From contig JAEDNL010000002.1 of assembly GCA_016302505.1 (NCBI GenBank), positions 297 through 64,296 of the forward strand: DNA of 64,000 nt, in the 5' to 3' direction. The notes under the pieces were generated by a model. That model worked only from the letters and a program-made list of their open reading frames with translations. It was not told the DNA's origin and made no database searches. Position 1 is the stretch's first letter, and each line of letters begins with the position of its first letter. Below, in pieces: positions 18,758 through 50,771 of the stretch. Both the position numbers and the translations under genes were made by a program. The DNA is from Bacilli bacterium. GTDB taxonomy: Bacteria > Bacillota_I > Bacilli_A > RF39 > UBA660.

Positions 18758-18768
18758 AAGGAGCTAGT

Positions 18769-33241: not shown

Positions 33242-34837
33242 ATGAAAGAGTATGTTACTTTAAAATTAGAAGATGAAATGATAGTCTTTAATTATGAAAC
33301 TATTTCTGATGAAGCAATTAAAATGGTTGATAAGAATAGTTTTTTTAAAGATACTCTTTTTTATACGTTAAAATACTTTAGAAAAAATATAAACAATATT
33401 TGTAAAAATTTTACAAACATTAAAACTATGTATGTTAAAAGATTAGTAACATTTAAATATATTAGGGATATAATGTTTGATTTAAGGATAGAGAATCTTA
33501 AATTAGATTTTAGATCTACCATATCTTTAGAAGATTATGAATTGTTTTTAGGATTAGATAGTCTTAATAAAATAGATTGTTATTACATGCCAAAATTTAT
33601 TAAAGAAAAGTTTGAAAGTAAAGGTGTAATAGTAAATCTTTATAATAGGAATAAAGTGTCAGATAGATTTATGCTTCAAGTTGATGCGTTTGATTATGAG
33701 ACATTATATTATATTAAAAATCTATGTATTAAAGAAGATTATCCTAATTTATTAGATGATATAAAAGAGTTTTTAAGAATTAATTATAATTTAAAGGCAA
33801 TTCATATATACATATTTTCTAAAGATATAATTGAGGGAATAGTTAATTTAGTTAAAAACGATGAGGCAAGAAATATAATGTTTTTTTTGCATCAAGAATA
33901 TGATAAAGATAATTTTATAGTTAATAATATATCTTGGTTAAAAGAGTTAAATGAAAAATGTAAAAATGAATATACTTGTGAATTTAAAATAATATATTCT
34001 AATTCATTTTTAAGAAAGAATTTATTTAAGCAGTTAACATTTAATAATTTAAAACTTATAACTGTATTTGGCGTTTATGTGAGTTTAGTATCTATAATTA
34101 TAGTTAAATCTTATCAATTTGTTGAAAAAGCTAGTATTGATCAGATAAGAAATAATATTATTAGTGATTCTTATGCAGCTAGCGATACTGAAGATACAAC
34201 AATAGAAGATGAAGAAATAGAAGAACCCGCTGTTAGTAGTGATAAGACTACTAAGAAGGAAGTTACTAATAAATATACATTTAAAAATGCTATCAATGAA
34301 TTAATAAAAACTAATAATGAAACAGTAGGATTTTTAAAAGTAAATAATACTAATATTAATTATCCCGTAGTCCAGCATTCTGATAATAGTTATTATTTAA
34401 ATCATGATTTCTATAAGAAAAAGAAAGTAATGGGTTGGGTATTTTTAGATTATAGAAACTCACATGATAGTTTTGATTCTAATAATATTATATATGGACA
34501 CAATATGCCAAATAAAACTATGTTTGGTAGTTTAAGTAATGTTATGACGTCTTCATGGAGAAAGAATAAAAATAACTTAATAATTACTTATGATACTTTA
34601 AATAATAATAATAAATTTAAAATATTTTCTATTTATAAAGTAGATTATACTACAGATTATTTAAAAACTAAGTTCTCATCAAAAGAAGAATTTGATAGTT
34701 TTGTTAAAATGATTAGAAATAGAAGTACATTAAAGTCAGATGAGAAAGTAGAATATGGTGATAAAATACTTACATTATCTACTTGTGCTGATAAGGGTAA
34801 AAAACGACTTGTAGTGCATGCAGTACTTATAGATTAG
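33242..34837 (+). CDS. Bitopic membrane protein: ~270-aa cytoplasmic domain of unknown function + TM + acidic linker + class-B-sortase-like domain
   Basis: 531 aa. TM LKLITVFGVYVSLVSIIIV. Sortase B-like blocks VGFLKVNNTNINYPVVQHSDNSYYLNHD, IIYGHNM (His), LTLSTCADKG (Cys codon 34784-34786), RLVVHAVL (Arg). Confidence 0.75.
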   Translation: MKEYVTLKLEDEMIVFNYETISDEAIKMVDKNSFFKDTLFYTLKYFRKNINNICKNFTNIKTMYVKRLVTFKYIRDIMFDLRIENLKLDFRSTISLEDYELFLGLDSLNKIDCYYMPKFIKEKFESKGVIVNLYNRNKVSDRFMLQVDAFDYETLYYIKNLCIKEDYPNLLDDIKEFLRINYNLKAIHIYIFSKDIIEGIVNLVKNDEARNIMFFLHQEYDKDNFIVNNISWLKELNEKCKNEYTCEFKIIYSNSFLRKNLFKQLTFNNLKLITVFGVYVSLVSIIIVKSYQFVEKASIDQIRNNIISDSYAASDTEDTTIEDEEIEEPAVSSDKTTKKEVTNKYTFKNAINELIKTNNETVGFLKVNNTNINYPVVQHSDNSYYLNHDFYKKKKVMGWVFLDYRNSHDSFDSNNIIYGHNMPNKTMFGSLSNVMTSSWRKNKNNLIITYDTLNNNNKFKIFSIYKVDYTTDYLKTKFSSKEEFDSFVKMIRNRSTLKSDEKVEYGDKILTLSTCADKGKKRLVVHAVLID

Positions 34838-34846: not shown

Positions 34847-35488
34847 ATGAAAAAGATATTATTATTTATATCAATGTTAATTCCTGTTTATGTTAATGCG
34901 GTGTGTGATAATAGTGAAATAGTTAATTTAGGTAAACTTGCTAGTAACATTACATATGATACTGAATATTCTAAGAGTTTATCTAAATATACTGTTACAT
35001 TTTATAATGTAGTAGAAGATATATATTTAGAATATAATAATAAAAAGTATAGTCCTAATCAAAATAATGAGGTTACGATAAGTGGTTTGGAAGAGGGAAA
35101 TGTCATAGATGTAGTTGTTTATCCAAATGCTTCAGATTGTAGAAGTAGTTTATTAACAATAAGTGTTAAACTAAAATACTATAATACATTTTATAATGAT
35201 TCTAGGTGTAAAAAGTATGCTGATAATGGATGTAGCACTGTTTATTGTACTAATCAATTTTTAGATGTAAAACCTACACTAATATTGTTTGAAGAGTCTC
35301 TTAAAAATACATGTGAAGAACCAGCGATACCCTTATCAAAACCTGATAATGAAGAAGTTACATTATATGATAAAATAGCAGATTTTTTATTAGACTATGG
35401 TATCAAATTTTTATTAATCGCAATTAGTTTAACTGTATCAATATTAATATTTACAAATAAATATAGAAAAATTAAACATGGTATTTAA
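34847..35488 (+). CDS. Secreted Cys-containing protein with C-terminal membrane anchor
   Basis: 213 aa. Signal peptide ...PVYVNA/VCDN, several Cys, C-terminal TM (FLLIAISLTVSILIF) with a basic tail NKYRKIKHGI. No LPXTG/NPQTN-like motif precedes the anchor. Confidence 0.6.
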   Translation: MKKILLFISMLIPVYVNAVCDNSEIVNLGKLASNITYDTEYSKSLSKYTVTFYNVVEDIYLEYNNKKYSPNQNNEVTISGLEEGNVIDVVVYPNASDCRSSLLTISVKLKYYNTFYNDSRCKKYADNGCSTVYCTNQFLDVKPTLILFEESLKNTCEEPAIPLSKPDNEEVTLYDKIADFLLDYGIKFLLIAISLTVSILIFTNKYRKIKHGI

Positions 35489-35499: not shown

Positions 35500-36120
35500 A
35501 TGAAAAAAGGAATAAAAATAGGTTTACTTATAACAATATTGTTATTCTCATCGAAAGTTTATGCAGAATGTAATAATAATGAACTTAATGATTGGGCAGA
35601 AAATGTTAGTATTGAATATAAAGATAATCTAAAATCAGGTGATTATAATTACCTTTTATTGGTTAGTCCATATAATGAATTAGCTACTGTTAAAGTTGTA
35701 TTAGATGATAAAGAATATTTAATAGATTATGATAGTGATTATAAAACTAATGTTGTTGGTAGTAACATTCATTTTGATGAAAAAAAATATATAATTAAAT
35801 TTTATGGTAATGAAAAGTCTGGTTGTAATAATGAATTATTAAGAGAACTTGAGTATAAAGTTCCTGGATATAATAAATATTCTGATTATGAATATTGTAA
35901 AAATAATAAAAATTTAGAAATTTGTAAGACTAATACTGATAATAAGAATTTAAGTGATGAAGAATTTAATAAAAAAATAGTAAAAGAAGAAGTTGAAGAA
36001 AAATCAATATTATCATTTATTAAAAATTATTGGTGTTTTGTGATTGTCCCTATAGTTATAGTGGCAGTAATTTATTATTATAAAGTATATTTATTAAAGA
36101 AAAAGGAGAATAAGAAATGA
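35500..36120 (+). CDS. Module A gene 1: small secreted Cys-containing protein with C-terminal anchor
   Basis: 206 aa. Signal peptide ...SSKVYA/ECNNNELNDWAENV and C-terminal TM + KKKENKK. Paralogue of 40470..41138, with shared blocks such as FYGNEKS-x-CN-x-ELLRE-[LI]-EYKVP. Confidence 0.65.
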   Translation: MKKGIKIGLLITILLFSSKVYAECNNNELNDWAENVSIEYKDNLKSGDYNYLLLVSPYNELATVKVVLDDKEYLIDYDSDYKTNVVGSNIHFDEKKYIIKFYGNEKSGCNNELLRELEYKVPGYNKYSDYEYCKNNKNLEICKTNTDNKNLSDEEFNKKIVKEEVEEKSILSFIKNYWCFVIVPIVIVAVIYYYKVYLLKKKENKK

Positions 36121-39100
36121 AAAAGTTAAGTAGATTATTTATAATTTCATCCTTATTCTTTATAGGGAATAGTAATGTTAATGCAGTTGTTTCTGTTAAT
36201 AGTGATACTGTTTATAAGATAGAAGAGCAAGGACCTGCTACTTATAAATATGTTGAAAGTAAAACTTCATCAATCGATAAATTTTATAAAGTAGTTGATT
36301 CAACTAAGTATATAATATTTAATACTACTGATGGAGATGTAGATTGTAAAGATAAAACAAGTTGTCAAAATATCGTTGATAAAAAGTGTGCAAATAAAGA
36401 TGATTGTTCTCTTGATTTGGTTGTTAATGAAAAAATAGCTCAGTCACTTGCAAATGATTACTGTAAAGAAAAAGACAACTGTACTGTAATGAAAATGTGT
36501 TGTGATAAAACCAATTGTATTAGTGAAGAAAAATGTATTTCTTCAAAAGAATTAAAAACAGTTGCAGTAGAAAAAGGAAAAGTAAGAAAACAATATAGTG
36601 TAATTGATACATTTCAAACTAGAATATGGAGATATAAAATAAATTATGGTTCTAAGTGGTCAGAAGCATATTGTATTCAACCAGGTAAAATGGGACCATT
36701 TGGTGGGCAAAATTATTTTTTAAATCATTCAATTGATGTAAGAAGTTGTACTTCAGTCTATGATAAAAATATTGGTTATCCATGTGGGCTTGCTGAAGTC
36801 TTCTATCAAGCATATAGTAAAAAATACGATGAATCAAATGAAGATGATTTTACTAGTATAAATATAGCATTAAGATTATGGATAAATTATTATTATAAAG
36901 TATATAATACATATAATTCATTATCTGATATTGATAAATCTGGGTATGAAAAATTAGATGATACTTACACGGAGTCATCAATTTATGAAAGTACTGTTCT
37001 TGCAATACTTGATAATTATAGTAGTGGTAAATGTAGTGATGCATCTAAATATAAAGGAAATATATTATGTGATAGTAAAAATAAAAATAATAATGTAATA
37101 TCAAGAGCTATTCAATTGTTTAATTTAGTTAGAAATGCTAAAACATTTCATGGTAATGAATTTATGAAAGCAGATACTATTAAAGATGCTCAATCTAAAA
37201 TAACTTTAATAGAAAAAGGATATAAAAATAATAAAAAAATATTTGAAGTGGAAGTTAAAGGACTTAAAGATGTAATTATAACGGATGAAACTAATAAAAA
37301 TATTACTTTATATGAATCTATATATAAGAGTTGTCATAATAAAGAAAATACCACTGAATGTAAAAAAGCTATTAAATTTACAGATGGTAATGGAACTTCT
37401 TATTATCCTGCGACTACTAATGCTGATGGAACATTTACAATTGATTGGGATAACACTCAAGGAAAAGATAGTTTAGTGTTCAAAGTTATCAATTATGAAG
37501 TATGTTATAAATCAACAGGAAACGATGTTTCTGATTCAAAAGCTGCTGTATATTTTGGAAGTGCTAGTGGTTATGATGCTAAATTAAGAATATATTATCC
37601 AAATAACAATAGTTATCAAATAATGGTTAGTTATTTTAATGAGGGATTTAAAGATAAGCTTGGTTCTAGCTGGGACTATAGAATTAAAATTAATATAGAT
37701 GATGATTCATATTGCGTGGATAATTGTAGTGATAAATGTAGTGATTCTAAACAATCAACTGATTTTGAACAATCAGGTTCAAAACAATTGTTAGGAACTT
37801 GTGGAGATGATGCTTCTTTGTATTCAGAATATACTATAGAAGATCCAGGAATGAGTTGTATTGTTAATTCGTGTAATAGTGTTACTAAAGACAAGTATGA
37901 AGAAAGTAAAGCTATATCTAATCAATACTGTAAAGTCTATTGTAGAAATACTACAAAATATTATCTTAAAAATAAAGTAGATGTTTATGCAGGAATGCAA
38001 TTTAGCTATGATTTAGGTAGTGAACTTATAAAAAACGGTATCATATCCTCACAAGTAAAACCTGATTATAAATTAACTAGTGTTGTTATGGAGCATAAAC
38101 AATGTACTAGTGTAATTGATAATGATAAATGGCAAAATGATTATAAAAACGCAAATAAAGATGCTAAGACTCAACTTGAATATGATTTATATAATTGTAA
38201 TTTATATAGTTCAAAAAATATGCCAAGTAAATATAATAACTATATAAATAAAAACACTGGTACAATAAGAGATTATTTATATAGTAGTGAACTTGATGAT
38301 TGTGTTAATGGAAGTAGTAATTGTAATAAAATTGATGTATCTTATGATGAGGGATATAAAGTTGTACTTAATAAAAATGTAAGAAAAGAAACTTCAAACA
38401 AAACATACTACTGTAGTAGTAATAATTGTTTTGATAATAGTGATGTTAATAGTTGTTCATCAGAAAAATCTAACATGAATGGTTCTATACCAAATAATAA
38501 ATATGCAACTGTATTCATTGATACACAATATGATTATTACTTAAAAACTAAATTTAAATATGAAACATATACAGGAAATATAATTACAAATGGTAAAACT
38601 GAAAATACAGTAGATCTACCATCATTTAGTTATCCTATAAAGAGTACTACTAGGACAGGTACTTATAATATAAAATATTCAATAACTAATATAGCAAAAA
38701 ATAAAGTATATGATTTTAATAATATTAAATATACATGTAAATATAATGTTTATAATGTAACTAAAAAATATGATTGTAATTATAAAACTGGAGAATGTTC
38801 TAATTCATGTTATGAAGTTAAAAATGGTGTAGCTGTTTTAAAGAGTGAATGTATGAGTTTTAAAAAATCTAATGATGTTGGTATGGGACTTATATATAGA
38901 AATGTTTCATTAGGAAAATTATTCCCTGCTAGTAGAGTTAATTATTCTAACTGGAGTGATTATAATTATGTAATTAATCCTGAGATTTATAATAAAAATT
39001 TTTCCAATAAGACTATTAATGTAAGTGAAATTAAAAAAACTATAGAAAATACTAGTGAAGAATTATATAAACAAGATAATGAACATTTAGAATATAGTTA

Positions 39101-39308
39101 TACTTTAACACCAGAGTCTATATCTAAAATAAAGGAATACAATAAAATTACTAATAATTATTTAGATAATACTCTTACTTGTAGTAAATACATTTCAGTA
39201 GGCTCAAATAATGATGATAATTCAAGGTTGTATTATGATTGTAAAAGTAGTTTCTTAAGAGATATTAAAAAACACGGTGTTATAGTTCATGCAGGAGGTG
39301 GTAACTAA
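36117..39308 (+). CDS. Module A gene 2: 1063-aa secreted cysteine-rich protein
   Basis: Signal peptide ...GNSNVNA/VVS. About 40 Cys by hand count. Blocks conserved with 41135..44326: AYCIQP (Cys codon 36672-36674), IGYPCGLAEVFYQA, ALRLWINYYY, TIEDPGMSCIVNSC, YCKVYCR, AGMQFSYDLG, KQCTSV, YRNVSLGKLFP. Its start overlaps the upstream stop (ATGA). Confidence 0.7.
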   Translation: MKKLSRLFIISSLFFIGNSNVNAVVSVNSDTVYKIEEQGPATYKYVESKTSSIDKFYKVVDSTKYIIFNTTDGDVDCKDKTSCQNIVDKKCANKDDCSLDLVVNEKIAQSLANDYCKEKDNCTVMKMCCDKTNCISEEKCISSKELKTVAVEKGKVRKQYSVIDTFQTRIWRYKINYGSKWSEAYCIQPGKMGPFGGQNYFLNHSIDVRSCTSVYDKNIGYPCGLAEVFYQAYSKKYDESNEDDFTSINIALRLWINYYYKVYNTYNSLSDIDKSGYEKLDDTYTESSIYESTVLAILDNYSSGKCSDASKYKGNILCDSKNKNNNVISRAIQLFNLVRNAKTFHGNEFMKADTIKDAQSKITLIEKGYKNNKKIFEVEVKGLKDVIITDETNKNITLYESIYKSCHNKENTTECKKAIKFTDGNGTSYYPATTNADGTFTIDWDNTQGKDSLVFKVINYEVCYKSTGNDVSDSKAAVYFGSASGYDAKLRIYYPNNNSYQIMVSYFNEGFKDKLGSSWDYRIKINIDDDSYCVDNCSDKCSDSKQSTDFEQSGSKQLLGTCGDDASLYSEYTIEDPGMSCIVNSCNSVTKDKYEESKAISNQYCKVYCRNTTKYYLKNKVDVYAGMQFSYDLGSELIKNGIISSQVKPDYKLTSVVMEHKQCTSVIDNDKWQNDYKNANKDAKTQLEYDLYNCNLYSSKNMPSKYNNYINKNTGTIRDYLYSSELDDCVNGSSNCNKIDVSYDEGYKVVLNKNVRKETSNKTYYCSSNNCFDNSDVNSCSSEKSNMNGSIPNNKYATVFIDTQYDYYLKTKFKYETYTGNIITNGKTENTVDLPSFSYPIKSTTRTGTYNIKYSITNIAKNKVYDFNNIKYTCKYNVYNVTKKYDCNYKTGECSNSCYEVKNGVAVLKSECMSFKKSNDVGMGLIYRNVSLGKLFPASRVNYSNWSDYNYVINPEIYNKNFSNKTINVSEIKKTIENTSEELYKQDNEHLEYSYTLTPESISKIKEYNKITNNYLDNTLTCSKYISVGSNNDDNSRLYYDCKSSFLRDIKKHGVIVHAGGGN

Positions 39309-40375
39309 TGAAAGAATCATTATGGGGTTATTTGATATTAGTATTAGGTGTTATAGTTACTACTGTTATACTTTTAGTAAATAGAGTAACAACAACAACA
39401 GAAGAAGATTATTATTTAGGACAAGAAGTTATGAAGTCAGCTATGCTTGATGCTATAGATTATGGAACTTATAGAACTACTGGTAAAATAGTTATGTCTA
39501 AAGAAAAATTTGTTGAAGTATTTATAAGAAGATTTTCTGAAAGCGTAACAAATAATAAAACATATAAATTAGATTTTTATGATATATATGAAGAACCTCC
39601 TAAAGCTAGTGTAAGAATAAGAGCAACATCAGGTAGTGCTACTATAAATGATGAGACACTTAATGTAACATTAGACACTGTTTTAAATGGTATATTAGAA
39701 ACTATATATGAACAATATTTAGATGGTATAACAACCACTGATAGATATTTTTATCATCAAAATAAAATTAATTATTATTATTCAAGTATTAATGATAAAA
39801 ATGAAGTGGTTGGTTCAACTACTGAAATAAAAGATGGTTCTAAAATAGTATTAGTACTTGATAAATACGCTGAGATTAATCCAAGTGAAATATTTAAATA
39901 TTATGCGGAAGGTAAAGTTGGAGCATCTATGAATGAAGTATCAGAAATATTATCAGCTTCAGCTTGTAATTATAAAGATTCTAGCGGAAAAGAGTATTGT
40001 AAAGGAATATATAACAATAAGATAGTGTATATTTATAGAAAGACATTATCTTATAAAAATAATACTAATACTAGTTTTAATAATCAAACAAAGAAAGCAT
40101 TAACATGTGGTATAAAATCTAGTTTTGACACTAAGTATAATAATAAAACTTATTCAGTAAAATATGTTAATAATAAAGAAGGAGCAACTATATATACAAA
40201 TACTAGTTTTAGTAAAGAAAAAGGAAGTTTAAGTTGCGGTAAATCTGTTATAGTTAATGGCTGTAATTATAAGAATAGTTCTAATACTTATTGTAAAATA
40301 ATTGATGAAAGTGGAAAAGATAATTACATAAATAAAAATTATTTAAGTGATAAACCACAAGAATGTGGTAGTTAA
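39308..40375 (+). CDS. Module A gene 3: N-terminally anchored (pilin-like leader) protein with conserved N-domain and Cys-bracketed SH3-like C-terminal repeats
   Basis: 355 aa. MKESLWG + hydrophobic helix. The first ~137 aa are about three-quarters identical to 44326..45804 by hand alignment. The C-terminus carries repeats like CNYKDSSGKEYCKGIYNNKIVYIYRKTLS. Its start overlaps the upstream stop (TAATG). Confidence 0.65.
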   Translation: MKESLWGYLILVLGVIVTTVILLVNRVTTTTEEDYYLGQEVMKSAMLDAIDYGTYRTTGKIVMSKEKFVEVFIRRFSESVTNNKTYKLDFYDIYEEPPKASVRIRATSGSATINDETLNVTLDTVLNGILETIYEQYLDGITTTDRYFYHQNKINYYYSSINDKNEVVGSTTEIKDGSKIVLVLDKYAEINPSEIFKYYAEGKVGASMNEVSEILSASACNYKDSSGKEYCKGIYNNKIVYIYRKTLSYKNNTNTSFNNQTKKALTCGIKSSFDTKYNNKTYSVKYVNNKEGATIYTNTSFSKEKGSLSCGKSVIVNGCNYKNSSNTYCKIIDESGKDNYINKNYLSDKPQECGS

Positions 40376-40406
40376 GATATTGTAATTTCAATATCTTTTC
40401 TTTTTA
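40374..40406 (+). terminator. Rho-independent terminator between module A and module B
   Basis: Stem AAGATATTG (40374-40382) / CAATATCTT (40389-40397), 6-nt loop, then a T-rich tail. Confidence 0.65.
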
Positions 40407-40469
40407 AATAAAATACTTTAAAAATTTTTTAAAATATATTATAATCATTATAGATAAAGTAGGTGAGTT

Positions 40470-41138
40470 ATGAATAATAAAATATCTAAGTTAACTTTAA
40501 TATTTTCATTAACTTTTATGTTTACATTAAATGTAAATGCACAATGTAATGATGATGAGCTTAATAATTGGGCAGAAAAAGTAAATATTGAATTTAAGGA
40601 AGAAGTTGAAACAAAAGATTATAATCCTGAATTTGCATATGTATTACTTATGAGCCCATATAATGATAAAATAACTATGAAAGCAACGGATGACTATTCA
40701 GATGATTTTTATACCATCGAATATGATGATTATTATAAAACCAATGCAATAGGTAGTTATGTTCATTTTGAAGAAAAAACTTATACTATAAGATTTTATG
40801 GTAATGAAAAATCAACATGTAATGGTGAATTATTAAGAGAAATCGAGTATAAAGTACCTAGCTATAATCAATATGCATTAACTGATTTTTGTCAACAAGA
40901 AGAAAATAAAAACCAAGATATTTGTAAAATGAATACTGATACTAGTAAAATAACGGAAGAAGATTTTAATAAAAAAGCAGATGTAATAGATGAAAAAAAT
41001 AAAGAAACCAATATATTTGAAAAAATAATTAAATTTATTATTAAATATTGGTACTATGTAGTTATACCTTTTGTTATTGTTGCAGCTATTTATTATTATA
41101 AAGTATCTGCATATAAAAAGGAGCAAGATAAGAAATGA
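40470..41138 (+). CDS. Module B gene 1: small secreted Cys-containing protein with C-terminal anchor
   Basis: 222 aa. Signal peptide ...LNVNA/QCNDDELNNWAEKV and C-terminal TM + KKEQDKK. Paralogue of 35500..36120. Confidence 0.65.
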   Translation: MNNKISKLTLIFSLTFMFTLNVNAQCNDDELNNWAEKVNIEFKEEVETKDYNPEFAYVLLMSPYNDKITMKATDDYSDDFYTIEYDDYYKTNAIGSYVHFEEKTYTIRFYGNEKSTCNGELLREIEYKVPSYNQYALTDFCQQEENKNQDICKMNTDTSKITEEDFNKKADVIDEKNKETNIFEKIIKFIIKYWYYVVIPFVIVAAIYYYKVSAYKKEQDKK

Positions 41139-44100
41139 GAAATAAATTATATAAATCTATTTTATTATTTGCATGCTTATTCATATCAACTACAGTTATA
41201 AATGCAGCTACTGCATCAGGAAGTCAAACAATGGTTAATATAAGAAATACAAGCATAGGTGGAAGTAGTTCTAAGATAGCTGGATTTTATAATACTACAA
41301 CGAAAGCTTATCAAAAGGGAGAAGATAAATACATTGGAACTTTTGAAAAGAATTTACAAGGATATGCAGCCTTAAGAAATACTCTTAGAAATTATAATTG
41401 TAGTACTGACAATGAGTCACACTATAGAAATTGTACTTGTGAAAATCCCCATGATACATGTAGAATATCTCACTATAGGCATGATGACGGAACATATCTT
41501 ATGGATGCATATGTAAACCAAGCAAAACTTGCAAGTGTTCCAGCAACAACTGGCACTTATATTCATCACTACACTATAACTAACTCTACTGGTTCATCTT
41601 CAAGTAATGCATATTGTATTCAACCTTCTAAACAATGGCCAGGAAGTAGTGATCAAACTGATCCTAATTACATTTTAAATAGAACTGTTGATGTTAGAAA
41701 TTGTAAATCAATAGGAGATAGAAGTATTGGATATCCTTGTGGACTTGCTGAAATATTTTATCAAGCTAAAAAAGGTACTATGAGTAAATTGTCTGACGAA
41801 AATGAACATTATAATGTTATTGGTGCAGCACTTAGAATGTGGGTTGTTTATTGGTATAAATTTACTAATTATAGGAATATGGCTGGTATTGAGCAAGAAA
41901 GTGTATGTGGAGAAACAGGAGCGGGATGTGTAACTGGAAATGAGTATGCATCAAAGCCAGTATATTATAATACTGTTAATGCGGTATTGATGGGTTATAC
42001 TGGTAGTTCGTGTAGTAATGTTTCTAAAAAATACGGTAATGGGTCTAATCATGGTATATTATGTTGGACTGATAAAAGATCAAAGGAATCAGTTCAAAAT
42101 ATTATAAATTTATTTAATTATGTAAGACTTCATCAAAATGATAAAATACAAGATAATAGATTTGGTGCTGCTGATAATAGTTTTGATATTAAAACATATA
42201 TTAAAGAAAAGCAAAAATTAAAAACTAAATCAGATGGTCAAACTAAATGGAATATGACAATAGAAGTTAAGGTTGATGAAAATGTTAAGAATCAAATATA
42301 TGCTAAATGTAATCCTAAAAATGAATCAGGATGTAAATCACTTGTAGAAGTTATTGATGCTTATGGAGATTCTATTGGATATTGTTCAGGAAATGATATT
42401 AATAATGGAAAATCATGCTATAAAATTAACTTTAATGATCCTGATTATGAAGCTGGTGGAAAAGACTCATATTTATATACATTTAAAGTATATAATTATA
42501 AAGTTTGTGTGTTGACCAATAAAGAGGGAACAGTTGGTTTATATTTAACCAAACCTGGTATTAAGTTTAAATTAAAAGGTGGCTCTACTGGATTTGCTAC
42601 TGTAAGGCAATATATTCATAGTAGTAGTCCTGCTGATCGCCAAGTTATGATGACATATATTGATGATTATAAGAAATTTGATGGTGCCGAGATTAATAAA
42701 CCAGGAAAGGCACAAGATTATCATTTTCCGTTTGATTTAAGCGATATTAGTTGCGATCCTGCTGAGAATTGCGATAAGAAAAATAAGTGTTTAGATCTTA
42801 ATAAATCTACAGATATAAAAGGAAATAAAGATGGTAATAGTGTTGTAAGTGATATATGTAATAGTGGTGGTAATGATGCTGGTAAAGAGTTCAGTTATAA
42901 AACTATAGAAGACCCTCAAATGTCATGTATTCTCAACAATTGTGACACAAAGGCTACTGAAGAATATGATGTTACTAATAAATTAGGTGTTAATTCTGCA
43001 TTTTGTCATGTATATTGTAGAGATGAAGTTAGATTCTATATACCATCTCCTACTAGTGTCCTTGCAGGAATGCAATTTAGATTTGATTTAGGTAATTCAT
43101 TAAGAAAATTTGGGGCTATAACGAAACAAAATGATAATAATAAGAAATTAACAGCAGTAGTTGTTAGATATAAACAATGTACAAGTGTATTTAATCAATC
43201 TGAATATTATAATTCTGTTTCTAATACTAAAGATAAAGAAAAAGATTATTGCTTAATGAATAAGGAATTAATAAATAAATTAATTGATGAAGGTAATAAT
43301 GGTTTTAGCTATGATAGTAATAAAGAACCTACTTCATTAACAGTTACATATGAAGAGGGTAATAAAGTAAATATTAAATCTAATTATACAAAAACACGAG
43401 AAAGTTTAATGTATTGTAAGAATGATTGCTATAAGGTAAATAATACTAAGACTAAGACTTCTTGTGAAGCTAACTTAAGTAAATTTACAACTAGCAAGCC
43501 TACTATTAATTCTAATGATATTGTATATTCGACTTTATTAATAAGGGTTCAAAATGATTATTATATTGATAATGTATTCTCGTATGAACCTATTACTGGA
43601 AAAGTTTCTACAAACACTAGTAGAAAAACTAAAATTCCTAAATATAGTTATCCTGTTAGTATAGATACACCATCTGGTAAATATAATATTAATTATAAAT
43701 TTAACAATGTATCTAAAGATATTACAACTGGATATAATACATTTAATTATTCTTGTACATATAATGTATATAATACAACTAAAAAGAATAATTGTGATTA
43801 CAAATCTGGTGGTAAAGTTGATATATCTAAATGTTCTAATGCGTGTTTTGAAGTTGATTCAGAAGGGAACACTGTTATTGATAAAAATTGTATTAAATGG
43901 AATGAAACTGATAAATATGGTTTAGGTATAAGTTATAGAAATGTAAGCCTTAAAAATTTATTTCCAGTAGCTAGAGGTAATAGAAATAACTGGTATTATA
44001 AAGATGAAATAAACAATCCTTATGCTATTAAAAATGGTATTACTGTTAAGCATGAAAAAAGCAAAATAACTGTTGGAGATTTAATAAAAAAAACACAGGA

Positions 44101-44326
44101 TGTTGGTAATGATATATATAATAAAGAACATTTAGAAGCGAGTTATAAATTAACAACTGAAACCATTAAATCAATTAAAAAATATAATAAAAATAATGGT
44201 AATACTTATCTTAATGATACATCTGTTGATTGTGTTGAAGTGAAAAGAGCATCTGGTGGAAAATATTATAGGTGTGGAAGTACTTTCTTAAATGAAATTA
44301 GAAGTTCAAAGGTGGGTGGTAACTAA
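41135..44326 (+). CDS. Module B gene 2: 1063-aa secreted cysteine-rich protein
   Basis: Signal peptide ...TTVINA/ATA. About 36 Cys in the mature part by hand count. It has the same length as 36117..39308 and the same conserved blocks: AYCIQP with Cys codon 41615-41617, IGYPCGLAEIFYQA, ALRMWVVYWY, TIEDPQMSCILNNC, FCHVYCR, AGMQFRFDLG, KQCTSV, YRNVSLKNLFP. Confidence 0.7.
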   Translation: MRNKLYKSILLFACLFISTTVINAATASGSQTMVNIRNTSIGGSSSKIAGFYNTTTKAYQKGEDKYIGTFEKNLQGYAALRNTLRNYNCSTDNESHYRNCTCENPHDTCRISHYRHDDGTYLMDAYVNQAKLASVPATTGTYIHHYTITNSTGSSSSNAYCIQPSKQWPGSSDQTDPNYILNRTVDVRNCKSIGDRSIGYPCGLAEIFYQAKKGTMSKLSDENEHYNVIGAALRMWVVYWYKFTNYRNMAGIEQESVCGETGAGCVTGNEYASKPVYYNTVNAVLMGYTGSSCSNVSKKYGNGSNHGILCWTDKRSKESVQNIINLFNYVRLHQNDKIQDNRFGAADNSFDIKTYIKEKQKLKTKSDGQTKWNMTIEVKVDENVKNQIYAKCNPKNESGCKSLVEVIDAYGDSIGYCSGNDINNGKSCYKINFNDPDYEAGGKDSYLYTFKVYNYKVCVLTNKEGTVGLYLTKPGIKFKLKGGSTGFATVRQYIHSSSPADRQVMMTYIDDYKKFDGAEINKPGKAQDYHFPFDLSDISCDPAENCDKKNKCLDLNKSTDIKGNKDGNSVVSDICNSGGNDAGKEFSYKTIEDPQMSCILNNCDTKATEEYDVTNKLGVNSAFCHVYCRDEVRFYIPSPTSVLAGMQFRFDLGNSLRKFGAITKQNDNNKKLTAVVVRYKQCTSVFNQSEYYNSVSNTKDKEKDYCLMNKELINKLIDEGNNGFSYDSNKEPTSLTVTYEEGNKVNIKSNYTKTRESLMYCKNDCYKVNNTKTKTSCEANLSKFTTSKPTINSNDIVYSTLLIRVQNDYYIDNVFSYEPITGKVSTNTSRKTKIPKYSYPVSIDTPSGKYNINYKFNNVSKDITTGYNTFNYSCTYNVYNTTKKNNCDYKSGGKVDISKCSNACFEVDSEGNTVIDKNCIKWNETDKYGLGISYRNVSLKNLFPVARGNRNNWYYKDEINNPYAIKNGITVKHEKSKITVGDLIKKTQDVGNDIYNKEHLEASYKLTTETIKSIKKYNKNNGNTYLNDTSVDCVEVKRASGGKYYRCGSTFLNEIRSSKVGGN

Positions 44327-45804
44327 TGAAAGAATCTTTATGGGGATATTTGATTTTATTACTTGGTGTGATAGTTACCACTGTAATGCTTCTAGTGTCA
44401 AGAGTAACAACTCATGCTGAAGAGGACTATTATTTGGCAAGAGAAATTATGCAATCTGCAATGTTGGATGCTGTTGATTATGGAGCATATAGAACAACTG
44501 GTAAAATTATTATGTCTAAAAGTAAATTTATGGAAGTATATATTAGAAGATTTGCTGAAAGCGTTACTAATTCTCAAGATTATCAAATAGATTTTTATGA
44601 TATATGTGAAGAACCTCCTAAAGCAAGTGTTAGAATTCGTACTTCAAGTGGTGGGGCAACTATTAATTCTGATACATTAAACTTTAGTGTTGATACATTA
44701 ATTAGTGGTATTTTAGAAACAAATTTTGAACAATATAATGCTATGGATGTTACTAAAGAGAATAATGCAACTTCAAAAGAATATTCAGAAGGCAAAAGTT
44801 CAACTGTTAGATATACTACTACAAGTGAAGGAAATTATATGCAGACAAATGTATATGAATTAGTAAGTGGTCAAACAGTTAAAAAAACTAATAAAAAAAT
44901 TCCTTCTGGTAGTAGAGTAACATTAGCAATGTCAAATGTAATAGATCAATCTATGGATTTAAAAGAATTAGAATTAGCAGAATCAAATGATTTAACAAAT
45001 AGAGCATGTGCATATAAAATTCAAGGTGGACAATTAGGAAAATATTGTAAAGTATTCTATAATGGTGAAGAAATTTATGTATATAGAATGAACTTATCTA
45101 GAGTTAATACTTCTATATATGAAGATAAATCTGATTCATTTATAAATAATAATTATAAATTATGTGAATATTCAACATTGAAATCTAATTCTAGTAGTAC
45201 ATCAATTGTTGAATATAAATGGATAAAAAATGGTGGAACAATTGCATATCCTAGTTTTTCATCTTCTAAAAATGGTAAGACAGTAGAAGCTTGTACTTTA
45301 GTAAAAGTGAGTGGATGTAATTATGGAAGTAATAAGGATATGTGTAAGGTTGAGAATAAAGGTTACATATATGAAAATGATTTAAAGGATGAATATGAAT
45401 GTGGTAATGAAAAAGTAACCATTCCAGATAATGTTACATTAAAGGACTTGCAAAATATAGGTACTATTGATGAAATAACTAAAGATGTAAGTCAAAAAAA
45501 ATATATGCTTATTGTACTTGATCAAAATGGTGTTACTGATTTGGGTACGCCTATATATTATTATTACGATACAAAAAATGAAAAAATGTACAAGTCTTAT
45601 AATCGTTCTAGTAAAAAATTTAGTGGTGAAATTAAAAAAATAACTATACCTAAAGTAAATAAAAAGTCTTGTCAAGGTTATATAGTTAAGAATGGTGGAT
45701 TTGTTATTGACTCTAAAGGAAACATGGTTAGTGACTTTGAGAAAATTCTTAAATCTACTTATGGTTCTGATGCAATAGTATATATATTATATCCAATGTG
45801 TTAA
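44326..45804 (+). CDS. Module B gene 3: N-terminally anchored (pilin-like leader) protein, longer paralogue of 39308..40375
   Basis: 492 aa. MKESLWG + hydrophobic helix and the conserved N-domain. Cys-bracketed repeats (CAYKIQGGQLGKYCKVFYNGEEIYVYRMNLS; GCNYGSNKDMCKVENKGYIYENDL). Extra C-terminal ~130 aa. Confidence 0.65.
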   Translation: MKESLWGYLILLLGVIVTTVMLLVSRVTTHAEEDYYLAREIMQSAMLDAVDYGAYRTTGKIIMSKSKFMEVYIRRFAESVTNSQDYQIDFYDICEEPPKASVRIRTSSGGATINSDTLNFSVDTLISGILETNFEQYNAMDVTKENNATSKEYSEGKSSTVRYTTTSEGNYMQTNVYELVSGQTVKKTNKKIPSGSRVTLAMSNVIDQSMDLKELELAESNDLTNRACAYKIQGGQLGKYCKVFYNGEEIYVYRMNLSRVNTSIYEDKSDSFINNNYKLCEYSTLKSNSSSTSIVEYKWIKNGGTIAYPSFSSSKNGKTVEACTLVKVSGCNYGSNKDMCKVENKGYIYENDLKDEYECGNEKVTIPDNVTLKDLQNIGTIDEITKDVSQKKYMLIVLDQNGVTDLGTPIYYYYDTKNEKMYKSYNRSSKKFSGEIKKITIPKVNKKSCQGYIVKNGGFVIDSKGNMVSDFEKILKSTYGSDAIVYILYPMC

Positions 45805-45833
45805 GCTACTTTTGTTTGAAAAGTAGCTTTTCT
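45804..45833 (+). terminator. Strong Rho-independent terminator after module B
   Basis: Perfect 10-bp stem AGCTACTTTT (45804-45813) / AAAAGTAGCT (45819-45828), loop GTTTG, then TTTTC. Confidence 0.8.
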
Positions 45834-45836
45834 ATA

Positions 45837-45866
45837 TTGATAAATTATTTCTATTTATGATATAAT
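45837..45866 (+). promoter_or_regulatory. Sigma-A-like promoter for the Tad core operon
   Basis: TTGATA (45837-45842), 18-nt spacer, TATAAT (45861-45866). Confidence 0.5.
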
Positions 45867-45908
45867 TTATATGAATAAAATAGATAACTATATTTGGAGG
45901 AAAAAAGA

Positions 45909-46706
45909 ATGAGTAATATATTAATAGGGATAAAAAGATTTTTAAAGAATAAAAATACAATAACAATTCTTGCATTACTTTTATGTGTTGGACTTATTTA
46001 TGCTGGTTACAATTGGAGAATTAAAAAAGCAACTGAGCCAATAAATGTTCCATATGCTATTCAAACACTTTCACCAAGAACACAAATAACTAGTGAAATG
46101 GTTGGTACTCGTAAAGTGGCAGGAAAAATTGTTACTAAAGATGTTATATTAAATCAAAATGAAATAATTAATAAATATGTTAGTAATGAAGCAGAAATTC
46201 CAGCAGGTAGTATGTTTTATAAATCAACTGTTATTGAATGGGAGGAAATGCCAACAAGTTTAACTGAGAATATACCTGATGGTAATACAATTGTGTCTCT
46301 TCCTGTTACAACAGAAACTACTTATGGAAATTCTATATTTCCTGGTAACTACATTGATTTATATTATGTAGGTACTTACAATGGAAAAACTTTAATAGGA
46401 AAATTTATTGAAAGTATTAAAGTTCTTTCAGTAACAGATAGTTCCGGTAATAATGTGTTTGAACAAAGCAGTGATATTCCATCTCCTTCATATATAATTT
46501 TTTCAGTACCTGAAGATATGCATTTATTATTAAGAAAAGCATTATATTTAAATGGTACTATATTCCCTGTACCAAGAAATTCAGAATATTCAAAAAATCC
46601 TAAGGCTACTGTAATAAGTAGTACACAAATACAACAATTAATACTTTCACAAACAGTTAATGTAAGTGAAAAAGATTTGAATTCAATAAAAATAGGAGGT
46701 AACTAA
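45909..46706 (+). CDS. cpaB: CpaB/RcpC-like Flp pilus assembly protein (SAF domain), copy 1
   Basis: ATG 45909 is 8 nt after GGAGG; the track's TTG 45894 is rejected. N-terminal TM, then INVPYAIQTLSPRTQITSEMVGTRKV...IPAGSMFY (SAF-like) and a beta-rich C-domain, the typical CpaB layout. Confidence 0.7.
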   Translation: MSNILIGIKRFLKNKNTITILALLLCVGLIYAGYNWRIKKATEPINVPYAIQTLSPRTQITSEMVGTRKVAGKIVTKDVILNQNEIINKYVSNEAEIPAGSMFYKSTVIEWEEMPTSLTENIPDGNTIVSLPVTTETTYGNSIFPGNYIDLYYVGTYNGKTLIGKFIESIKVLSVTDSSGNNVFEQSSDIPSPSYIIFSVPEDMHLLLRKALYLNGTIFPVPRNSEYSKNPKATVISSTQIQQLILSQTVNVSEKDLNSIKIGGN

Positions 46707-47488
46707 TGAAAAAGATATTTGCAAATAAAGGAGTTGTTACTTTCTTAGGTGGAATACTTTGTATAGTAATTTTGTTTTTTGCATATAGATATAGAGTTAA
46801 TAAAGAAATTAATCCTATTAGTGTTCCCTATGCTAAAACAAAACTAGAATCTAGGACTGAAATCACAAATGAAAATGTTGGTACAGTTAAAGTTCCTGCA
46901 TCTATGGTAACTGAAGGAGTTATAAGAGATAAAAGCCAAGTAATAGGAAAATATGTAAATTATAATACATTTATTCCAGCAGGTAGTTTATTTTATGCAT
47001 CTAGTGTAATTACATGGGATCAAATGCCTGATTCAGCATGGTCAGATATACCAGATGGTAATACAATTGTATATTTATCAGCTACTTCTACAACTACTGG
47101 TTCATTTATTTATCCTGGTGATAAAATAGATTTATATTTTAAAACTACTGATAATGGAAAACTTGTATATGGAAAATTAATTGAGGGAATTAAAGTTTTA
47201 GCAGTTAAAGATTCAACAGGTGCTCATATATTTAAGAAAACTGCTAGTCAAAAAGATTTTTCAACATTGATTTTCTCATTATCAGAAGATCTACATTTAT
47301 TACTTAGAAAATCTGGATATGTGTCTGGTGAAATAATTCCTGTAACTAGAAATCAAGATTATTGTAAAGATAAAGACTGTACAAAAGTTTCAAGTACATA
47401 TTTAAGAAACTTAATTGAATCACAAGTTGACAGTGCTGTTCAAGATAATACAACTAGCAGTGATAGTCAAGTTAAAGTAACAGAGTAA
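46706..47488 (+). CDS. cpaB: CpaB/RcpC-like Flp pilus assembly protein, copy 2
   Basis: 260 aa. A clear paralogue of the preceding gene (ISVPYAKTKLESRTEITNENVGTVKV...IPAGSLFY; LHLLLRK in both). Its start overlaps the upstream stop (TAATG). Confidence 0.7.
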   Translation: MKKIFANKGVVTFLGGILCIVILFFAYRYRVNKEINPISVPYAKTKLESRTEITNENVGTVKVPASMVTEGVIRDKSQVIGKYVNYNTFIPAGSLFYASSVITWDQMPDSAWSDIPDGNTIVYLSATSTTTGSFIYPGDKIDLYFKTTDNGKLVYGKLIEGIKVLAVKDSTGAHIFKKTASQKDFSTLIFSLSEDLHLLLRKSGYVSGEIIPVTRNQDYCKDKDCTKVSSTYLRNLIESQVDSAVQDNTTSSDSQVKVTE

Positions 47489-47521: not shown

Positions 47522-48667
47522 ATGGAAGATTTGGTATTTTCTCAAATTGATTTTGGACTTTTAATGCCATTGTTACAAGATGATGATATAACAGATATAT
47601 CATATTCTAACAATGGGCAAGTACATATTAAGACTCTTTCTCAAGGTATAAAACAAGTTAAAATTGAAGGTCTTAATAATGAAGTGATGGAAAAATTAGC
47701 ATTTCAATGTTCAAATGTAATGGGTAAGACATTTAATATGGCTCATCCACTACTTGATGCTGAAAGTGCTGAACTTCGTCTTAATTTTGTACATGAGTCA
47801 ATTGCAACTAATGGTATTGCTGTATTAATAAGAAAAACACCTGCTAAAATAAGACTTAATAAAGAAAAATTGGTTAGTGAAGATTATGTATCATTAAAAT
47901 TACATGATTTTCTAATTACATGTGTCCAAGGACACTGTAATATATTGGTTAGTGGTGAAACTGGTTCTGGAAAAACTGAACTTGTAAAATATTTAGCAAG
48001 TAAAATAAAAGAAGATGAAAAGATAATTACTATTGAAGATACATTGGAACTTCATTTAGATAAGATATATCCAACGCGAGATATAGTTGCTATGAAAACT
48101 AATAATATAGCATCATATTCAGATGTTTTAGTGGCGTGTATGAGACAAAATCCAAGATGGATTTTACTATCAGAAGTTCGTTCGGCTGAAGCTGTTATGG
48201 CAGTTAGAAACTCTATTTCTTCTGGACATAACATTTTATCAACAATTCATTCAGATAAAGCAAGTGCTATTCCAATGAGACTTTATTCATTATTAGAAAC
48301 AAGTCAAGATATTGATCAATTTATTAAAGGTATGCATAGATATATTCAACTAGGAATACATGTTAAAGGTTTTTTCTCTAAAAAATATAATAGGTTTCAA
48401 AGAGAAATAACACAAGTAGTTGAGTTTTATGTTGATGATGATAATGGTGAAGCTAAAGTAAATGTTTTATATTCAAGAGATTTGCTAGGAAATGAAGTAT
48501 ATAATAATCCAACTACGCATTTGATAGATTATTTATCTTCACAGGGAATTAGTATGCAAGAAGATCCATTTATACCAAAAGAAAGTGAAATAAAAGAAGT
48601 AAATGAAGATAATAAAGAGATAACTCAAGAGGTTAAACCTAATAATATAGAAATTATAGAGTTATAG
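47522..48667 (+). CDS. tadA: CpaF/TadA-family secretion ATPase (VirB11/PilB superfamily)
   Basis: 381 aa. Walker A SGETGSGKTE, Asp box IITIEDTLEL, Walker B region RWILLSEVR, His box GHNILSTIHS. Confidence 0.9.
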   Translation: MEDLVFSQIDFGLLMPLLQDDDITDISYSNNGQVHIKTLSQGIKQVKIEGLNNEVMEKLAFQCSNVMGKTFNMAHPLLDAESAELRLNFVHESIATNGIAVLIRKTPAKIRLNKEKLVSEDYVSLKLHDFLITCVQGHCNILVSGETGSGKTELVKYLASKIKEDEKIITIEDTLELHLDKIYPTRDIVAMKTNNIASYSDVLVACMRQNPRWILLSEVRSAEAVMAVRNSISSGHNILSTIHSDKASAIPMRLYSLLETSQDIDQFIKGMHRYIQLGIHVKGFFSKKYNRFQREITQVVEFYVDDDNGEAKVNVLYSRDLLGNEVYNNPTTHLIDYLSSQGISMQEDPFIPKESEIKEVNEDNKEITQEVKPNNIEIIEL

Positions 48668-48680: not shown

Positions 48681-49580
48681 ATGTATATAGAAATTCTCAT
48701 TATTGCTGTTATATTAATATTCATATATATATATAGAAAGAATACTGGAGATAGTTCTTACAAATTTATTAATAAAACAATAGGTGATACTTATAATAAA
48801 TATGCTCCTTATTCATTTAAAGTTGTAAGAGAGAAAGCTAAAGAACTAGGACAAGAATATACCAGTAGACAATATGTTGTTCAAATAATAATATTTGGTG
48901 TATCAGCTGCTTTTATAGCATATTTATATTTTTATAGTATATTGTGGAGCGTAGTATATGCAGTGGCTGCGATATTGATGGTTCCATACTTAGCATATAT
49001 GAGATGTAAAAAAGCATATAGTGAGTTTATATTTGAACAAATACAAGTATATACAACTAATGTAATAATGGAATTTAATACAACTCAATCTTTTGTAAAA
49101 GCATTAGAAGGTGTAAGAGATTCTGGAGTGTTAGAAGATCCATTACTTACTGATGTTAAAGAAATGATACAAATGTCATATGAAAATGGTACGATTGATG
49201 AAGCTATTAGATTTATGAATGAAAAATATGATTACTATGTAATAAAAAATATGCATCAATTATTCTTACAAATAACAAAAGAAGGTTCTAAAGATTCAGG
49301 TGAAGCTCTAGAAGGAATGCTTCAAGATATAGATATGTTAGTTGAAAGTGTATATAGAGATAGAATAGATAGAACAACTTTTTATAAGAAATTTATTACA
49401 TTTGGTTTAATGCTATATTTGTTAGTATTATTGATACAATTATTCTTAGGAGAGGCTAGTTATTTAGCATTATTAGATGAAGTATTTGTAGTTATATTAT
49501 TACATTGTGTAATTTTAATAAATACATACTTCTTAATATCAGGTATTAAATATTATCATGAAGATGTGGGGGCTGAATAA
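48681..49580 (+). CDS. tadB: TadB-like (GspF/T2SS-F family) inner-membrane platform protein
   Basis: 299 aa. N-terminal TM, a cytoplasmic helical domain, then C-terminal TMs. Located immediately after the ATPase, as in tad/cpa loci. Confidence 0.65.
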   Translation: MYIEILIIAVILIFIYIYRKNTGDSSYKFINKTIGDTYNKYAPYSFKVVREKAKELGQEYTSRQYVVQIIIFGVSAAFIAYLYFYSILWSVVYAVAAILMVPYLAYMRCKKAYSEFIFEQIQVYTTNVIMEFNTTQSFVKALEGVRDSGVLEDPLLTDVKEMIQMSYENGTIDEAIRFMNEKYDYYVIKNMHQLFLQITKEGSKDSGEALEGMLQDIDMLVESVYRDRIDRTTFYKKFITFGLMLYLLVLLIQLFLGEASYLALLDEVFVVILLHCVILINTYFLISGIKYYHEDVGAE

Positions 49581-50455: not shown

Positions 50456-50749
50456 ATGAAAGAAGCAACAGGAGAATTAAATATGACAGTTGTTACTATA
50501 GTAGCAATCGCTGCTGTAGCATTATTATTCTATGTATTCTTATGGCCAACAATACAAAAGAGTATTGTTAACCAAACATGTAAGACTTATGGTAGTAATT
50601 ACGGTGCTGTTTATGTTAAAGATGCTAATTCTGGGACTGGTGCTAAAGTTGCCGAGTGGAAGTGCTGCCCAGGCAAAGTTACCAATGGTAAAGTTGGTAA
50701 ACCGGATAAAAATAGTGCTGACTGTAAAGATGCAAACTTGGAAAAATAA
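50456..50749 (+). CDS. Small pilin-like protein (candidate major subunit)
   Basis: 97 aa. Short polar leader MKEATG followed by a ~25-aa hydrophobic helix (ELNMTVVTIVAIAAVALLFYVFLW), then a small Gly/Lys-rich globular part with 4 Cys. It has its own promoter and a strong RBS. Confidence 0.6.
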   Translation: MKEATGELNMTVVTIVAIAAVALLFYVFLWPTIQKSIVNQTCKTYGSNYGAVYVKDANSGTGAKVAEWKCCPGKVTNGKVGKPDKNSADCKDANLEK

Positions 50750-50771
50750 CGAATAATAAAGGAAAGAGCAT

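Follow-up and report, generated by a model that had tools for sequence, protein, structure and literature searches.

Type IVa pili carry tip complexes of minor pilins and PilY1, which can occur as paralogous sets: Myxococcus xanthus has three paralogous clusters, and Neisseria has PilC1 and PilC2. In the modular type IV pilins PilB and PilC of Streptococcus sanguinis, a pilin module bears a functional domain grafted to its C terminus; Tad/Flp (type IVc) pili have the accessory pilins TadE, TadF, and TadG; and in Pseudomonas aeruginosa the major and minor pilin alleles of the pilin-island allele groups are exchanged horizontally. Here we analyze a 64-kb stretch of DNA (the window) from an uncultured gut bacterium of the order RF39 (Bacilli), in which two tandem modules, A (35500-40375) and B (40470-45804), each encode a membrane anchor, a giant secreted protein, and a pilin-like protein of the DUF5411 family. 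Our account, to which we assign an overall probability of about 60%, is that the modules arose by an ancestral duplication, that their mosaic divergence records constraint, that module B is exchangeable, and that the modules are alternative tip-adhesin cassettes of a Tad-like filament.

The modules resemble the minor-pilin/PilY1 complexes in setting a large Sec-secreted nonpilin protein beside small pilin-like proteins, in occurring as paralogous sets, and in combining a conserved, presumably machine-facing part with a divergent, presumably exposed one. They differ in that the giants match no PilY1/PilC β-propeller in Pfam and have no propeller among their Foldseek matches, in carrying one DUF5411 pilin per module rather than four minor pilins, and in the extra membrane-anchor gene, the Gram-positive envelope, and the TadA/VirB11-like ATPase; the resemblance between giant and PilY1 is one of functional analogy only. 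Like PilB and PilC of S. sanguinis, DUF5411 proteins carry C-terminal additions—dockerin, Flg_new, C39-like peptidase, EF-hand, or PT-HINT domains—but they lack the canonical G/FTLxE prepilin motif, and their globular head is conserved family-wide, whereas ordinary pilins conserve mainly the N-terminal helix. The operon as a whole resembles Tad/Flp loci in having CpaB-like genes, a TadA-type ATPase gene, two genes in the TadB/TadC position, and small pilin-like genes in one unit. Unlike Tad/Flp, it shows no Flp motif (G/XXXXEY; its small candidate pilin pil97 reads MKEATG/ELNMTVV), no TadV, no recognizable TadZ, and no T2SSF match; its scores against Tad families are all below cut-off, and its sortase, its anchors, and its giants have no Tad counterpart. 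Module B and the 3′ half of pil97 recall the pilin islands of P. aeruginosa as divergent pilus-surface alleles between conserved flanks that move among lineages, although other genes are involved and what is exchanged here is a three-gene cassette of 5.7 kb. The phenomenon itself is familiar: Other pili, too, have tip or adhesin cassettes that occur as paralogues, can be exchanged, and keep a constant part for docking.

A Tad-like cluster is known in the uncultured gut clade TANB77 (PMC11680825), and an operon in which a CpaF-type ATPase and a platform protein accompany a DUF5411 protein was predicted from context by Miller et al. 2022 (PMC9523054). The latter study covers no anchor–giant–DUF5411 module, duplication, cassette exchange, or this lineage. 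Our literature search on DUF5411 and RF39 pili found only these two papers, and nothing on RF39 pili.

All six module genes are open reading frames on the plus strand, lying exactly where an earlier note on this DNA had placed them: A1 (35500-36120, 206 aa), A2 (36117-39308, 1063 aa), and A3 (39308-40375, 355 aa), followed by B1 (40470-41138, 222 aa), B2 (41135-44326, 1063 aa), and B3 (44326-45804, 492 aa). The gene order is shared, as are the junctions that the note had described as overlapping—ATGA between genes 1 and 2 and TAATG between genes 2 and 3 in both modules. The ribosome-binding site of each downstream gene sits within the upstream coding sequence, and the start/stop overlaps are consistent with translational coupling of the three genes. 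This embedding explains why A2, B2, and CpaB1, the first of the CpaB-like proteins (site 46695-46709), all end in GGN: The codons for these residues double as the ribosome-binding site (GGTGG or GGAGG) of the overlapping gene that follows.

Global protein alignment gives 52% identity for A1/B1, 35% for A2/B2 (344/984 aligned columns), and 51% for A3/B3 over their full length. The divergence is uneven, as the earlier note had judged by hand. The N-terminal domain (N-domain) of gene 3 is identical at 102 of 137 positions (74%), close to the three-quarters proposed, against 65 of 192 (34%) in the remainder (Fisher P = 3.7e-13), and its DNA is 76-80% identical. Identity between the giants is heterogeneous over 50-column blocks (chi-square P = 5e-4); the proteins share only islands, and these are columns conserved throughout the giant family. 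The unequal lengths of gene 3 (355 vs. 492 aa) likewise hold, as does the equal length of the giants, but to the latter no meaning attaches: We regard it as coincidence, because the A2/B2 alignment has ~80 gapped positions per protein and relatives of B2 measure 1070, 1076, 1078, and 1138 aa.

We reconstructed the origin of the two copies with neighbor-joining trees for all three module genes, drawing on the window genome (W), the related loci L001 and L002 (L-numbers denote fetched related loci), and single-module lineages, and with a separate tree of 39 giants. In all three gene trees, A copies group with A copies and B copies with B copies across W, L001, and L002, with A+B sister to the single-module lineages; the tree of giants is concordant. 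In every genome of the window's clade, the N-domains of A3 and B3 fall into orthologous clades of their own, and A and B are separated in this way in six assemblies. Since A and B never group by genome, the trees show the modules to be paralogues from one whole-module tandem duplication in the ancestor of this clade, with no concerted evolution thereafter. The duplication is no assembly artefact, as it recurs in independent assemblies (L001, L002, L010, L013, L014, and L039).

The mosaic of identity admits two explanations: unequal purifying selection or recent exchange between the copies. The earlier note had suggested that the similar ~400-nt segments at the start of gene 3 (39308-39720 and 44326-44740) could support recombination, and on this view both those segments and the islands of identity in the giants would be footprints of recent A/B gene conversion or recombination. 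For the window we regard this as hardly credible. We measured synonymous divergence in Nei–Gojobori windows, for which randomly paired codons set a saturation reference of pS 0.52 (pS and pN denote synonymous and nonsynonymous divergence). Between A and B, the gene 3 N-domain has pN 0.12-0.21 but pS 0.44-0.57, saturated and no lower than elsewhere; A2/B2 pS is 0.47-0.50 in high- and low-identity windows alike (r = -0.19). Identity between the giants tracks how well a column is conserved among 52 further members of the family (r 0.36, P 5e-31), reaching 77% at columns conserved at ≥80% and 23% at unconserved columns. The longest exact A/B DNA match is 22 nt (39297-39318 and 44315-44336, at the gene 2/gene 3 junctions), and the breakpoints of cassette replacement among relatives (see below) fall at module borders, outside the DUF5411 N-domain.

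Selection is preferred over conversion because synonymous sites are saturated everywhere, the N-domain included, and because no exact match exceeds those 22 nt. Between orthologues, purifying selection acts on every module gene, with ratios of nonsynonymous to synonymous divergence (dN/dS) of 0.13-0.35; the sortase and CpaB genes have ratios of 0.08-0.14. The first 98 residues of B3 keep 97-99% protein identity despite a pS of 0.40-0.43, which places the DUF5411 N-domain, by this measure, under very strong purifying selection. These comparisons show the mosaic to be a map of constraint rather than of recombination: The N-domain and the core motifs of the giants are held while the rest drifts or diversifies, and the window genome bears no sign of recent A–B exchange.

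The same segment behaves differently in L016, a lineage with an independent duplication. There the two DUF5411 genes (L016 7991-8441 and 12642-13092) are 100% identical over ~450 nt while the rest of the modules is 55-83% identical, and both genes carry the same frameshift in a poly-A run, possibly a slippery tract. The homogenization may reflect gene conversion or, at least in part, the collapse of near-identical repeats during assembly. As gene conversion it would demonstrate that this exact segment can convert; exchange through the conserved DUF5411 segment thus appears to happen in another lineage and has left no trace in the window.

Exchange of a different kind, between genomes, is pronounced in module B. 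The closest relative of the window genome, L010, is ~93% identical to it in DNA along the whole operon except at ~40900-45890, which comprises module B (51-77%), and in the 3′ half of pil97; identity is back to ~93% at 45894. At the protein level, B1, B2, and B3 are 70%, 48%, and 56% identical, compared with 88-92% for the A proteins; the CpaB-like, ATPase, and platform proteins reach 93-99%. Synonymous sites are saturated over the whole of module B, and the B3 N-domain is no exception. The window's B2 is nearer to the B2 of the more distant L002 (80%) and L001 (77%) than to that of L010 (48%).

The case is settled by L039, which is L002-like in its A module but L010-like in B. L039 and L002 belong to one species (96-98% nt identity in the sortase gene and the A module, dS 0.05-0.16), yet their B2 proteins share only 49% identity. 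Against L010, in contrast, B1, B2, and B3 are 99%, 94%, and 97% identical in nucleotides (dS 0.05-0.14), whereas A2 is 81% identical (dS 0.67). The shared segment spans ~5.7 kb, from the last ~160 nt of A3 to the B3–cpaB1 spacer, and the two species that share this near-identical module B (94-99% nt) have flanks that are ~81% identical. These alignments show that module B (B1-B2-B3) is an allelic cassette, replaced by homologous recombination in conserved flanks both within and between species. A divergent patch also lies inside the cassette shared by L039 and L010: ~450 nt (L039 10287-10735, B2 residues ~95-245) are 62-81% identical, against 96-100% around them.

Most species have one module; the window's clade, L015, and L016 have two; and L013 has two B-type modules with no A-type. 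The most variable block of B2 is residues 51-150, judged from an entropy profile of 106 B2-type sequences. Counts of clusters at 90% identity (at least 3 for A2, about 110 for B2) are an unsafe measure of diversity, as many B2 representatives are >95% identical to one another. The earlier note had read the variable parts as alternative specificities, and they behave as such: The C termini of gene 3 vary throughout the family, and among close relatives module B is replaced whole. No giants were found in IMG/VR, which thus gave no sign of a phage vehicle.

The giants carry a Sec signal peptide, are Cys-rich and multidomain, and have no C-terminal transmembrane (TM) segment. Their family comprises 443 clusters at 50% identity, 161 of them with E ≤ 1e-30, and its members share about a dozen invariant Cys together with the motifs AYCIQPGK, CGLAE, ALRLW, EDPxMSC, AGMQF, and CKSSFL. 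Neither giants nor anchors match Pfam, NCBIfam, or PHROGs above cut-offs, and the giant alignment, run as a profile against PDB sequences, returned only noise. The AlphaFold2 (AF2) model of A2 is multidomain, with a predicted local distance difference test score (pLDDT) of 71.6. Thioester-domain (TED) adhesins have a Cys in [YFL]C-x-[DNEQ] and a Gln in TQxA[IV]W; we considered this class and rejected it, as AYCIQPGK is (near-)invariant but the second motif, ALR[LM]W, has no Gln, and the Pfam TED profile is not matched.

A 39-member alignment shows the gene 1 product to be a type I membrane anchor: It starts with a signal peptide, has four conserved Cys, and ends in a TM segment with a KKK tail. 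A second anchor, U (34847-35488, plus strand), lies between the sortase gene and module A; in its family alignment, a Cys-rich ectodomain follows the signal peptide, and a C-terminal TM segment leads into an invariant RK(I/V)KHGI tail. U is a distant paralogue of gene 1 (hhalign profile–profile probability 97.7%, E 1.6e-12, 189 columns), and each of the two probably has two disulfides. Anchor U is also swapped among relatives, in its central part: Between L039 and its conspecific L002, the stretch L039 3892-4292 is 67-81% identical in nucleotides, against ~97% in the flanks, and forms a second variable cassette.

Gene 3 is assigned to DUF5411 with high scores: Against Pfam PF17424 (gathering cut-off 30 bits), A3 scores 164 bits (E 2.3e-48) and B3 162 bits (E 7.9e-48), covering profile positions 1-132/133 of 134. 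In A3 the N-domain occupies residues 1-137 (nt 39308-39718) and is followed by a variable β-rich C-terminal part; in B3 it occupies nt 44326-44736, followed by a longer variable part. The same plan runs through the 164 family matches, in which the N-domain is constant, its globular head strongly conserved, and the C terminus either absent (137-141 aa forms) or a Peptidase_C39_2, Flg_new-repeat, dockerin, EF-hand, or PT-HINT domain. The AF2 model of A3, built from a 58-sequence alignment, has a helix at residues 3-48, two short helices, and antiparallel strands at 85-94, 99-113, and 116-129, with pLDDT 78-93 over the first 100 residues; the predicted N-domain is a pilin-like lollipop, in which a 45-residue N-terminal helix packs on a small sheet. 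A profile search of PDB sequences with the DUF5411 alignment gave only noise. For the C-terminal part of A3, Foldseek returned weak matches (E 3e-3) to SlpA teichoic-acid-binding and endolysin wall-binding domains, which serve as a lead only.

The N terminus of DUF5411 proteins is itself distinctive. A short charged leader ending in Gly and followed by a hydrophobic stretch (MKESLWG/YLILVLGVIVTTVILLV) is conserved in 58 members, and two small pilin-like proteins of the same operon begin similarly—pil97 with MKEATG/ELNMTVV and pil177 with MKESIGG/TWL—so that all three share MKExxxG (6-7 residues) and a hydrophobic helix. We dropped the idea that the sortase removes the MKEATG leader, which would be cytoplasmic while the catalytic domain is extracellular. 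The earlier note had proposed that the N-domain docks into a common machine as a pilin-like stem. The pilin-like model, the strong purifying selection, and the type IV filament-like operon make a constant docking part a reasonable reading.

We placed the modules in their operon by scanning GTDB species representatives with the giant alignment, which yielded 25 loci, and by annotating the fetched loci with hidden Markov models. All 25 come from gut or rumen metagenome-assembled genomes (MAGs) that go under the labels Clostridium sp. CAG:1000, CAG:524, Bacilli, Mycoplasmatota, or Mollicutes; in GTDB, the family CAG-1000 belongs to the order RF39 (PMC8035907). The fetched loci share a near-invariant order of ~15 genes: srt-U-[g1-giant-DUF5411]xN-cpaB1-cpaB2-ATPase-two membrane proteins-pil97-pil177-p324-p117. 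Because the same order encloses one or two modules in these loci, the comparison shows the module to be a core component of the operon and not an insertion. L042 is rearranged over 1-11014, with a giant–anchor–giant block ahead of the PedC-like gene and the sortase gene and, directly after U, a DUF5411 gene whose product bears a dockerin.

In the window, the operon runs on the plus strand from a class B sortase gene (33242-34837; TIGR03064 163.8 bits, cut-off 153.75; Pfam Sortase E 5.6e-14), whose product has an N-terminal extension of ~320 aa. It is the first conserved operon gene and stands at the operon start in most loci that reach that far, with a DUF6568/PedC-like gene upstream. Downstream of module B lie two CpaB/RcpC-like genes (45894-47488; 270 and 260 aa) whose matches are below cut-off (PF16976 28.0 bits, cut-off 28.8; TIGR03177 E 1.6e-8 and 3e-8, 34 bits against a cut-off of 71). 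The secretion ATPase that follows (47522-48667) is of the TadA/VirB11/FlaI type (PF00437, T2SSE, E 2.2e-29); its best NCBIfam matches, to VirB11 (115 bits, cut-off 250), the TadA family (105 bits, cut-off 373), and FlaI, are all below cut-off. Two polytopic membrane proteins of 299 aa (48681-49580) and 265 aa (49580-50377) are assigned a putative TadB/TadC platform role from their position and topology.

The pilin-like genes come next. pil97 (50456-50749; 97 aa; invariant N terminus MKEA(T/S)GELNMTVV in the family alignment) is the candidate major pilin, and pil177 (50772-51305; 177 aa) is pilin-like by its family alignment. Major type IV pilins often combine a conserved 5′ part with a recombined, hypervariable 3′ half, and pil97 has this form: Compared with L010 and L013, the first ~40 codons show 95-100% conservation and dS ~0.27, whereas the 3′ half, especially 50550-50775, has been replaced and is hypervariable (46-59% aa, dS ~1.0-1.1). 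The operon closes with p324 (51329-52303; 324 aa) and p117 (52360-52713; 117 aa, two TM segments), both conserved in nearly all complete loci. The last protein matches T4SS_pilin PF18895 weakly and below cut-off (E 1.8e-4); it also has a weak, subthreshold likeness to a pilin-like family of Mycoplasma integrative and conjugative elements, which is odd for a Tad-like operon.

Of the intergenic signals in this operon, those at the right edge of module B are better than those between the modules. In the intermodule spacer (40374-40445, plus strand), an AU-rich hairpin followed by a T-run (40374-40397; -11 kcal/mol, z = -3.4) fails the GC criterion of the terminator scan; it is real but weak. The accompanying TTTAAA-17-TATAAT (40417-40445) is uninformative, because its TATAAT (40440-40445) is one of 184 promoter-like matches in a region of 25% G+C where shuffles give 174 ± 15. 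Of the terminator and TATAAT box that the earlier note saw separating the modules, the hairpin therefore survives as a structure, the box stands at chance level, and the terminator/promoter reading carries no meaning. A second pair (45803-45866, plus strand), between B3 and the CpaB-like genes, outranks it: A terminator-like hairpin (45803-45829) precedes the best promoter-like site of the region (45837-45866; TTGATA-18-TG-TATAAT, 11/12 matches plus TG). This pair coincides with the right border of the replaceable cassette and suggests that the variable block and the machinery block may be transcribed separately.

Outside the operon, the window contains a separate upstream block (9067-26100) that is mostly unannotated and includes an S26 signal-peptidase-like gene (12056-12610) and a gene for a 2443-aa protein (18769-26100) with BspA-type leucine-rich repeats and a CBM2 domain. 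On the minus strand, 59398-61602 encodes a 734-aa secreted protein that, judged by eye, appears to end in two dockerin-type repeats; dockerins also occur on some DUF5411 proteins of related genomes. No tRNA was found in the window.

We propose a Tad-like type IV filament as the most likely product of the operon. In it, DUF5411 would be a minor modular pilin whose constant head and helix insert into or cap the filament, and the Sec-exported giant would be held by it, after the cognate gene 1 anchor had kept the giant at the membrane until loading. The overlapping start and stop codons and the co-transfer of the genes as a unit fit a co-adapted three-protein complex. Two modules would then provide two tip-adhesin specificities, alternative or displayed together, and cassette replacement together with the hypervariable N-region of B2 may alter specificity or evade phage or immune recognition.

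A number of results weigh against this account. Whereas the alignments and trees show the evolutionary events themselves, the filament, the tip location, and the giant–DUF5411 contacts are steps that we infer. The ATPase and CpaB-like scores stay under their family cut-offs, the two polytopic proteins have no T2SSF match at E ≤ 0.1, and no prepilin peptidase (A24) or TadV was found among the open reading frames scanned in the 64-kb window. The putative mature N terminus of DUF5411 lacks Glu at +5 and instead has a conserved Glu at precursor position 3; Foldseek retrieved no pilin with the full-length A3 model; and hhalign comparison of DUF5411, pil177, and pil97 found similarity in only ~20 N-terminal residues, which is not significant. 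For the giants, Foldseek searches against PDB and BFVD gave nothing at E < 1e-3 and only insignificant Ig-like adhesin/receptor matches, hence no known adhesin fold. The pairing of giant and pilin is not obligatory either, as L015 has a second anchor–giant pair without its own DUF5411 gene and the giants of L042 are not adjacent to DUF5411. Finally, although the sortase is conserved, a motif scan found no sorting motif in any window protein that could mark a substrate, so that a part of the mechanism is missing.

Two other functional readings bear on these points. In one, the apparatus serves secretion or contact-dependent delivery: A Tad-like pseudopilus would push the giants or DUF5411-fused effectors through the wall or into neighbors. 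The modules would then carry alternative effectors or toxins, with the anchors as their cognate partners or as immunity-like proteins. Contact killing of prey is known from Tad-like Kil systems, and polymorphic toxin loci typically show cassette polymorphism and interspecies transfer, both of which we observe. Some DUF5411 proteins carry PT-HINT/intein-type or Peptidase_C39_2 domains. A DUF5411 operon was classed as secretion-related by Miller et al. 2022 (PMC9523054). We nevertheless consider delivery unlikely. The giant brings a Sec signal peptide of its own, shows no recognizable toxin or enzyme domain, and is not followed by a small immunity-like cytoplasmic gene; the anchors are extracytoplasmic type I membrane proteins, and a Gram-positive envelope has no outer membrane of the kind that type II secretion normally crosses.

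The other reading starts from the sortase and would make the modules sortase-dependent surface proteins that are merely co-located with Tad-like genes, the class B enzyme attaching anchors or giants to the wall. The place of this enzyme, scoring above its NCBIfam cut-off, at the start of most fetched loci speaks for it, and so does the end of the gene 1 and U proteins, where a hydrophobic segment with a basic tail has the topology typical of sorting signals. Despite that topology, no pentapeptide before the TM segment is conserved in 39 gene 1 or 24 U sequences, the giants end without a TM segment, and the scan of the window for sorting motifs came back empty. The order from sortase to p117, nearly invariant across species, argues moreover for one functional unit, and we regard mere co-location as decidedly improbable. 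The idea of docking and specificity in the earlier note is plausible and draws support from the exchange of whole cassettes, and we retain the tip-adhesin account at the probability stated above.

RF39-type Bacilli are common in gut microbiomes and uncultured, and have small genomes (one MAG chromosome measures 1.53 Mb). Across 25 species-representative genomes their operon is conserved, and its only fast-moving parts are the anchor–giant–DUF5411 module, anchor U, and pil97. Duplication, strain-level replacement, and interspecies transfer mark these parts, on comparative evidence, as a surface-exposed interface under selection, which makes them targets for strain typing, partner or host prediction, and structural work. 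DUF5411 gains a first structural and contextual assignment, the structural part being a model prediction, and the giants and the U/gene 1 anchors are defined as two families of proteins that lack annotation. A bolder and rather less likely reading is that the operon represents a distinct, lineage-wide branch of the type IV filament superfamily in reduced-genome gut Bacilli (RF39/CAG-1000 and relatives), one that combines a sortase, U and gene 1 anchors, giants, and a modular pilin, and whose cassette would be the main determinant of partner or host specificity, diversified by duplication, interspecies transfer, and local mosaicism. If so, the cassette might, for instance, tether the cells to other bacteria or to mucosal glycans that these uncultured, small-genome organisms could depend on.

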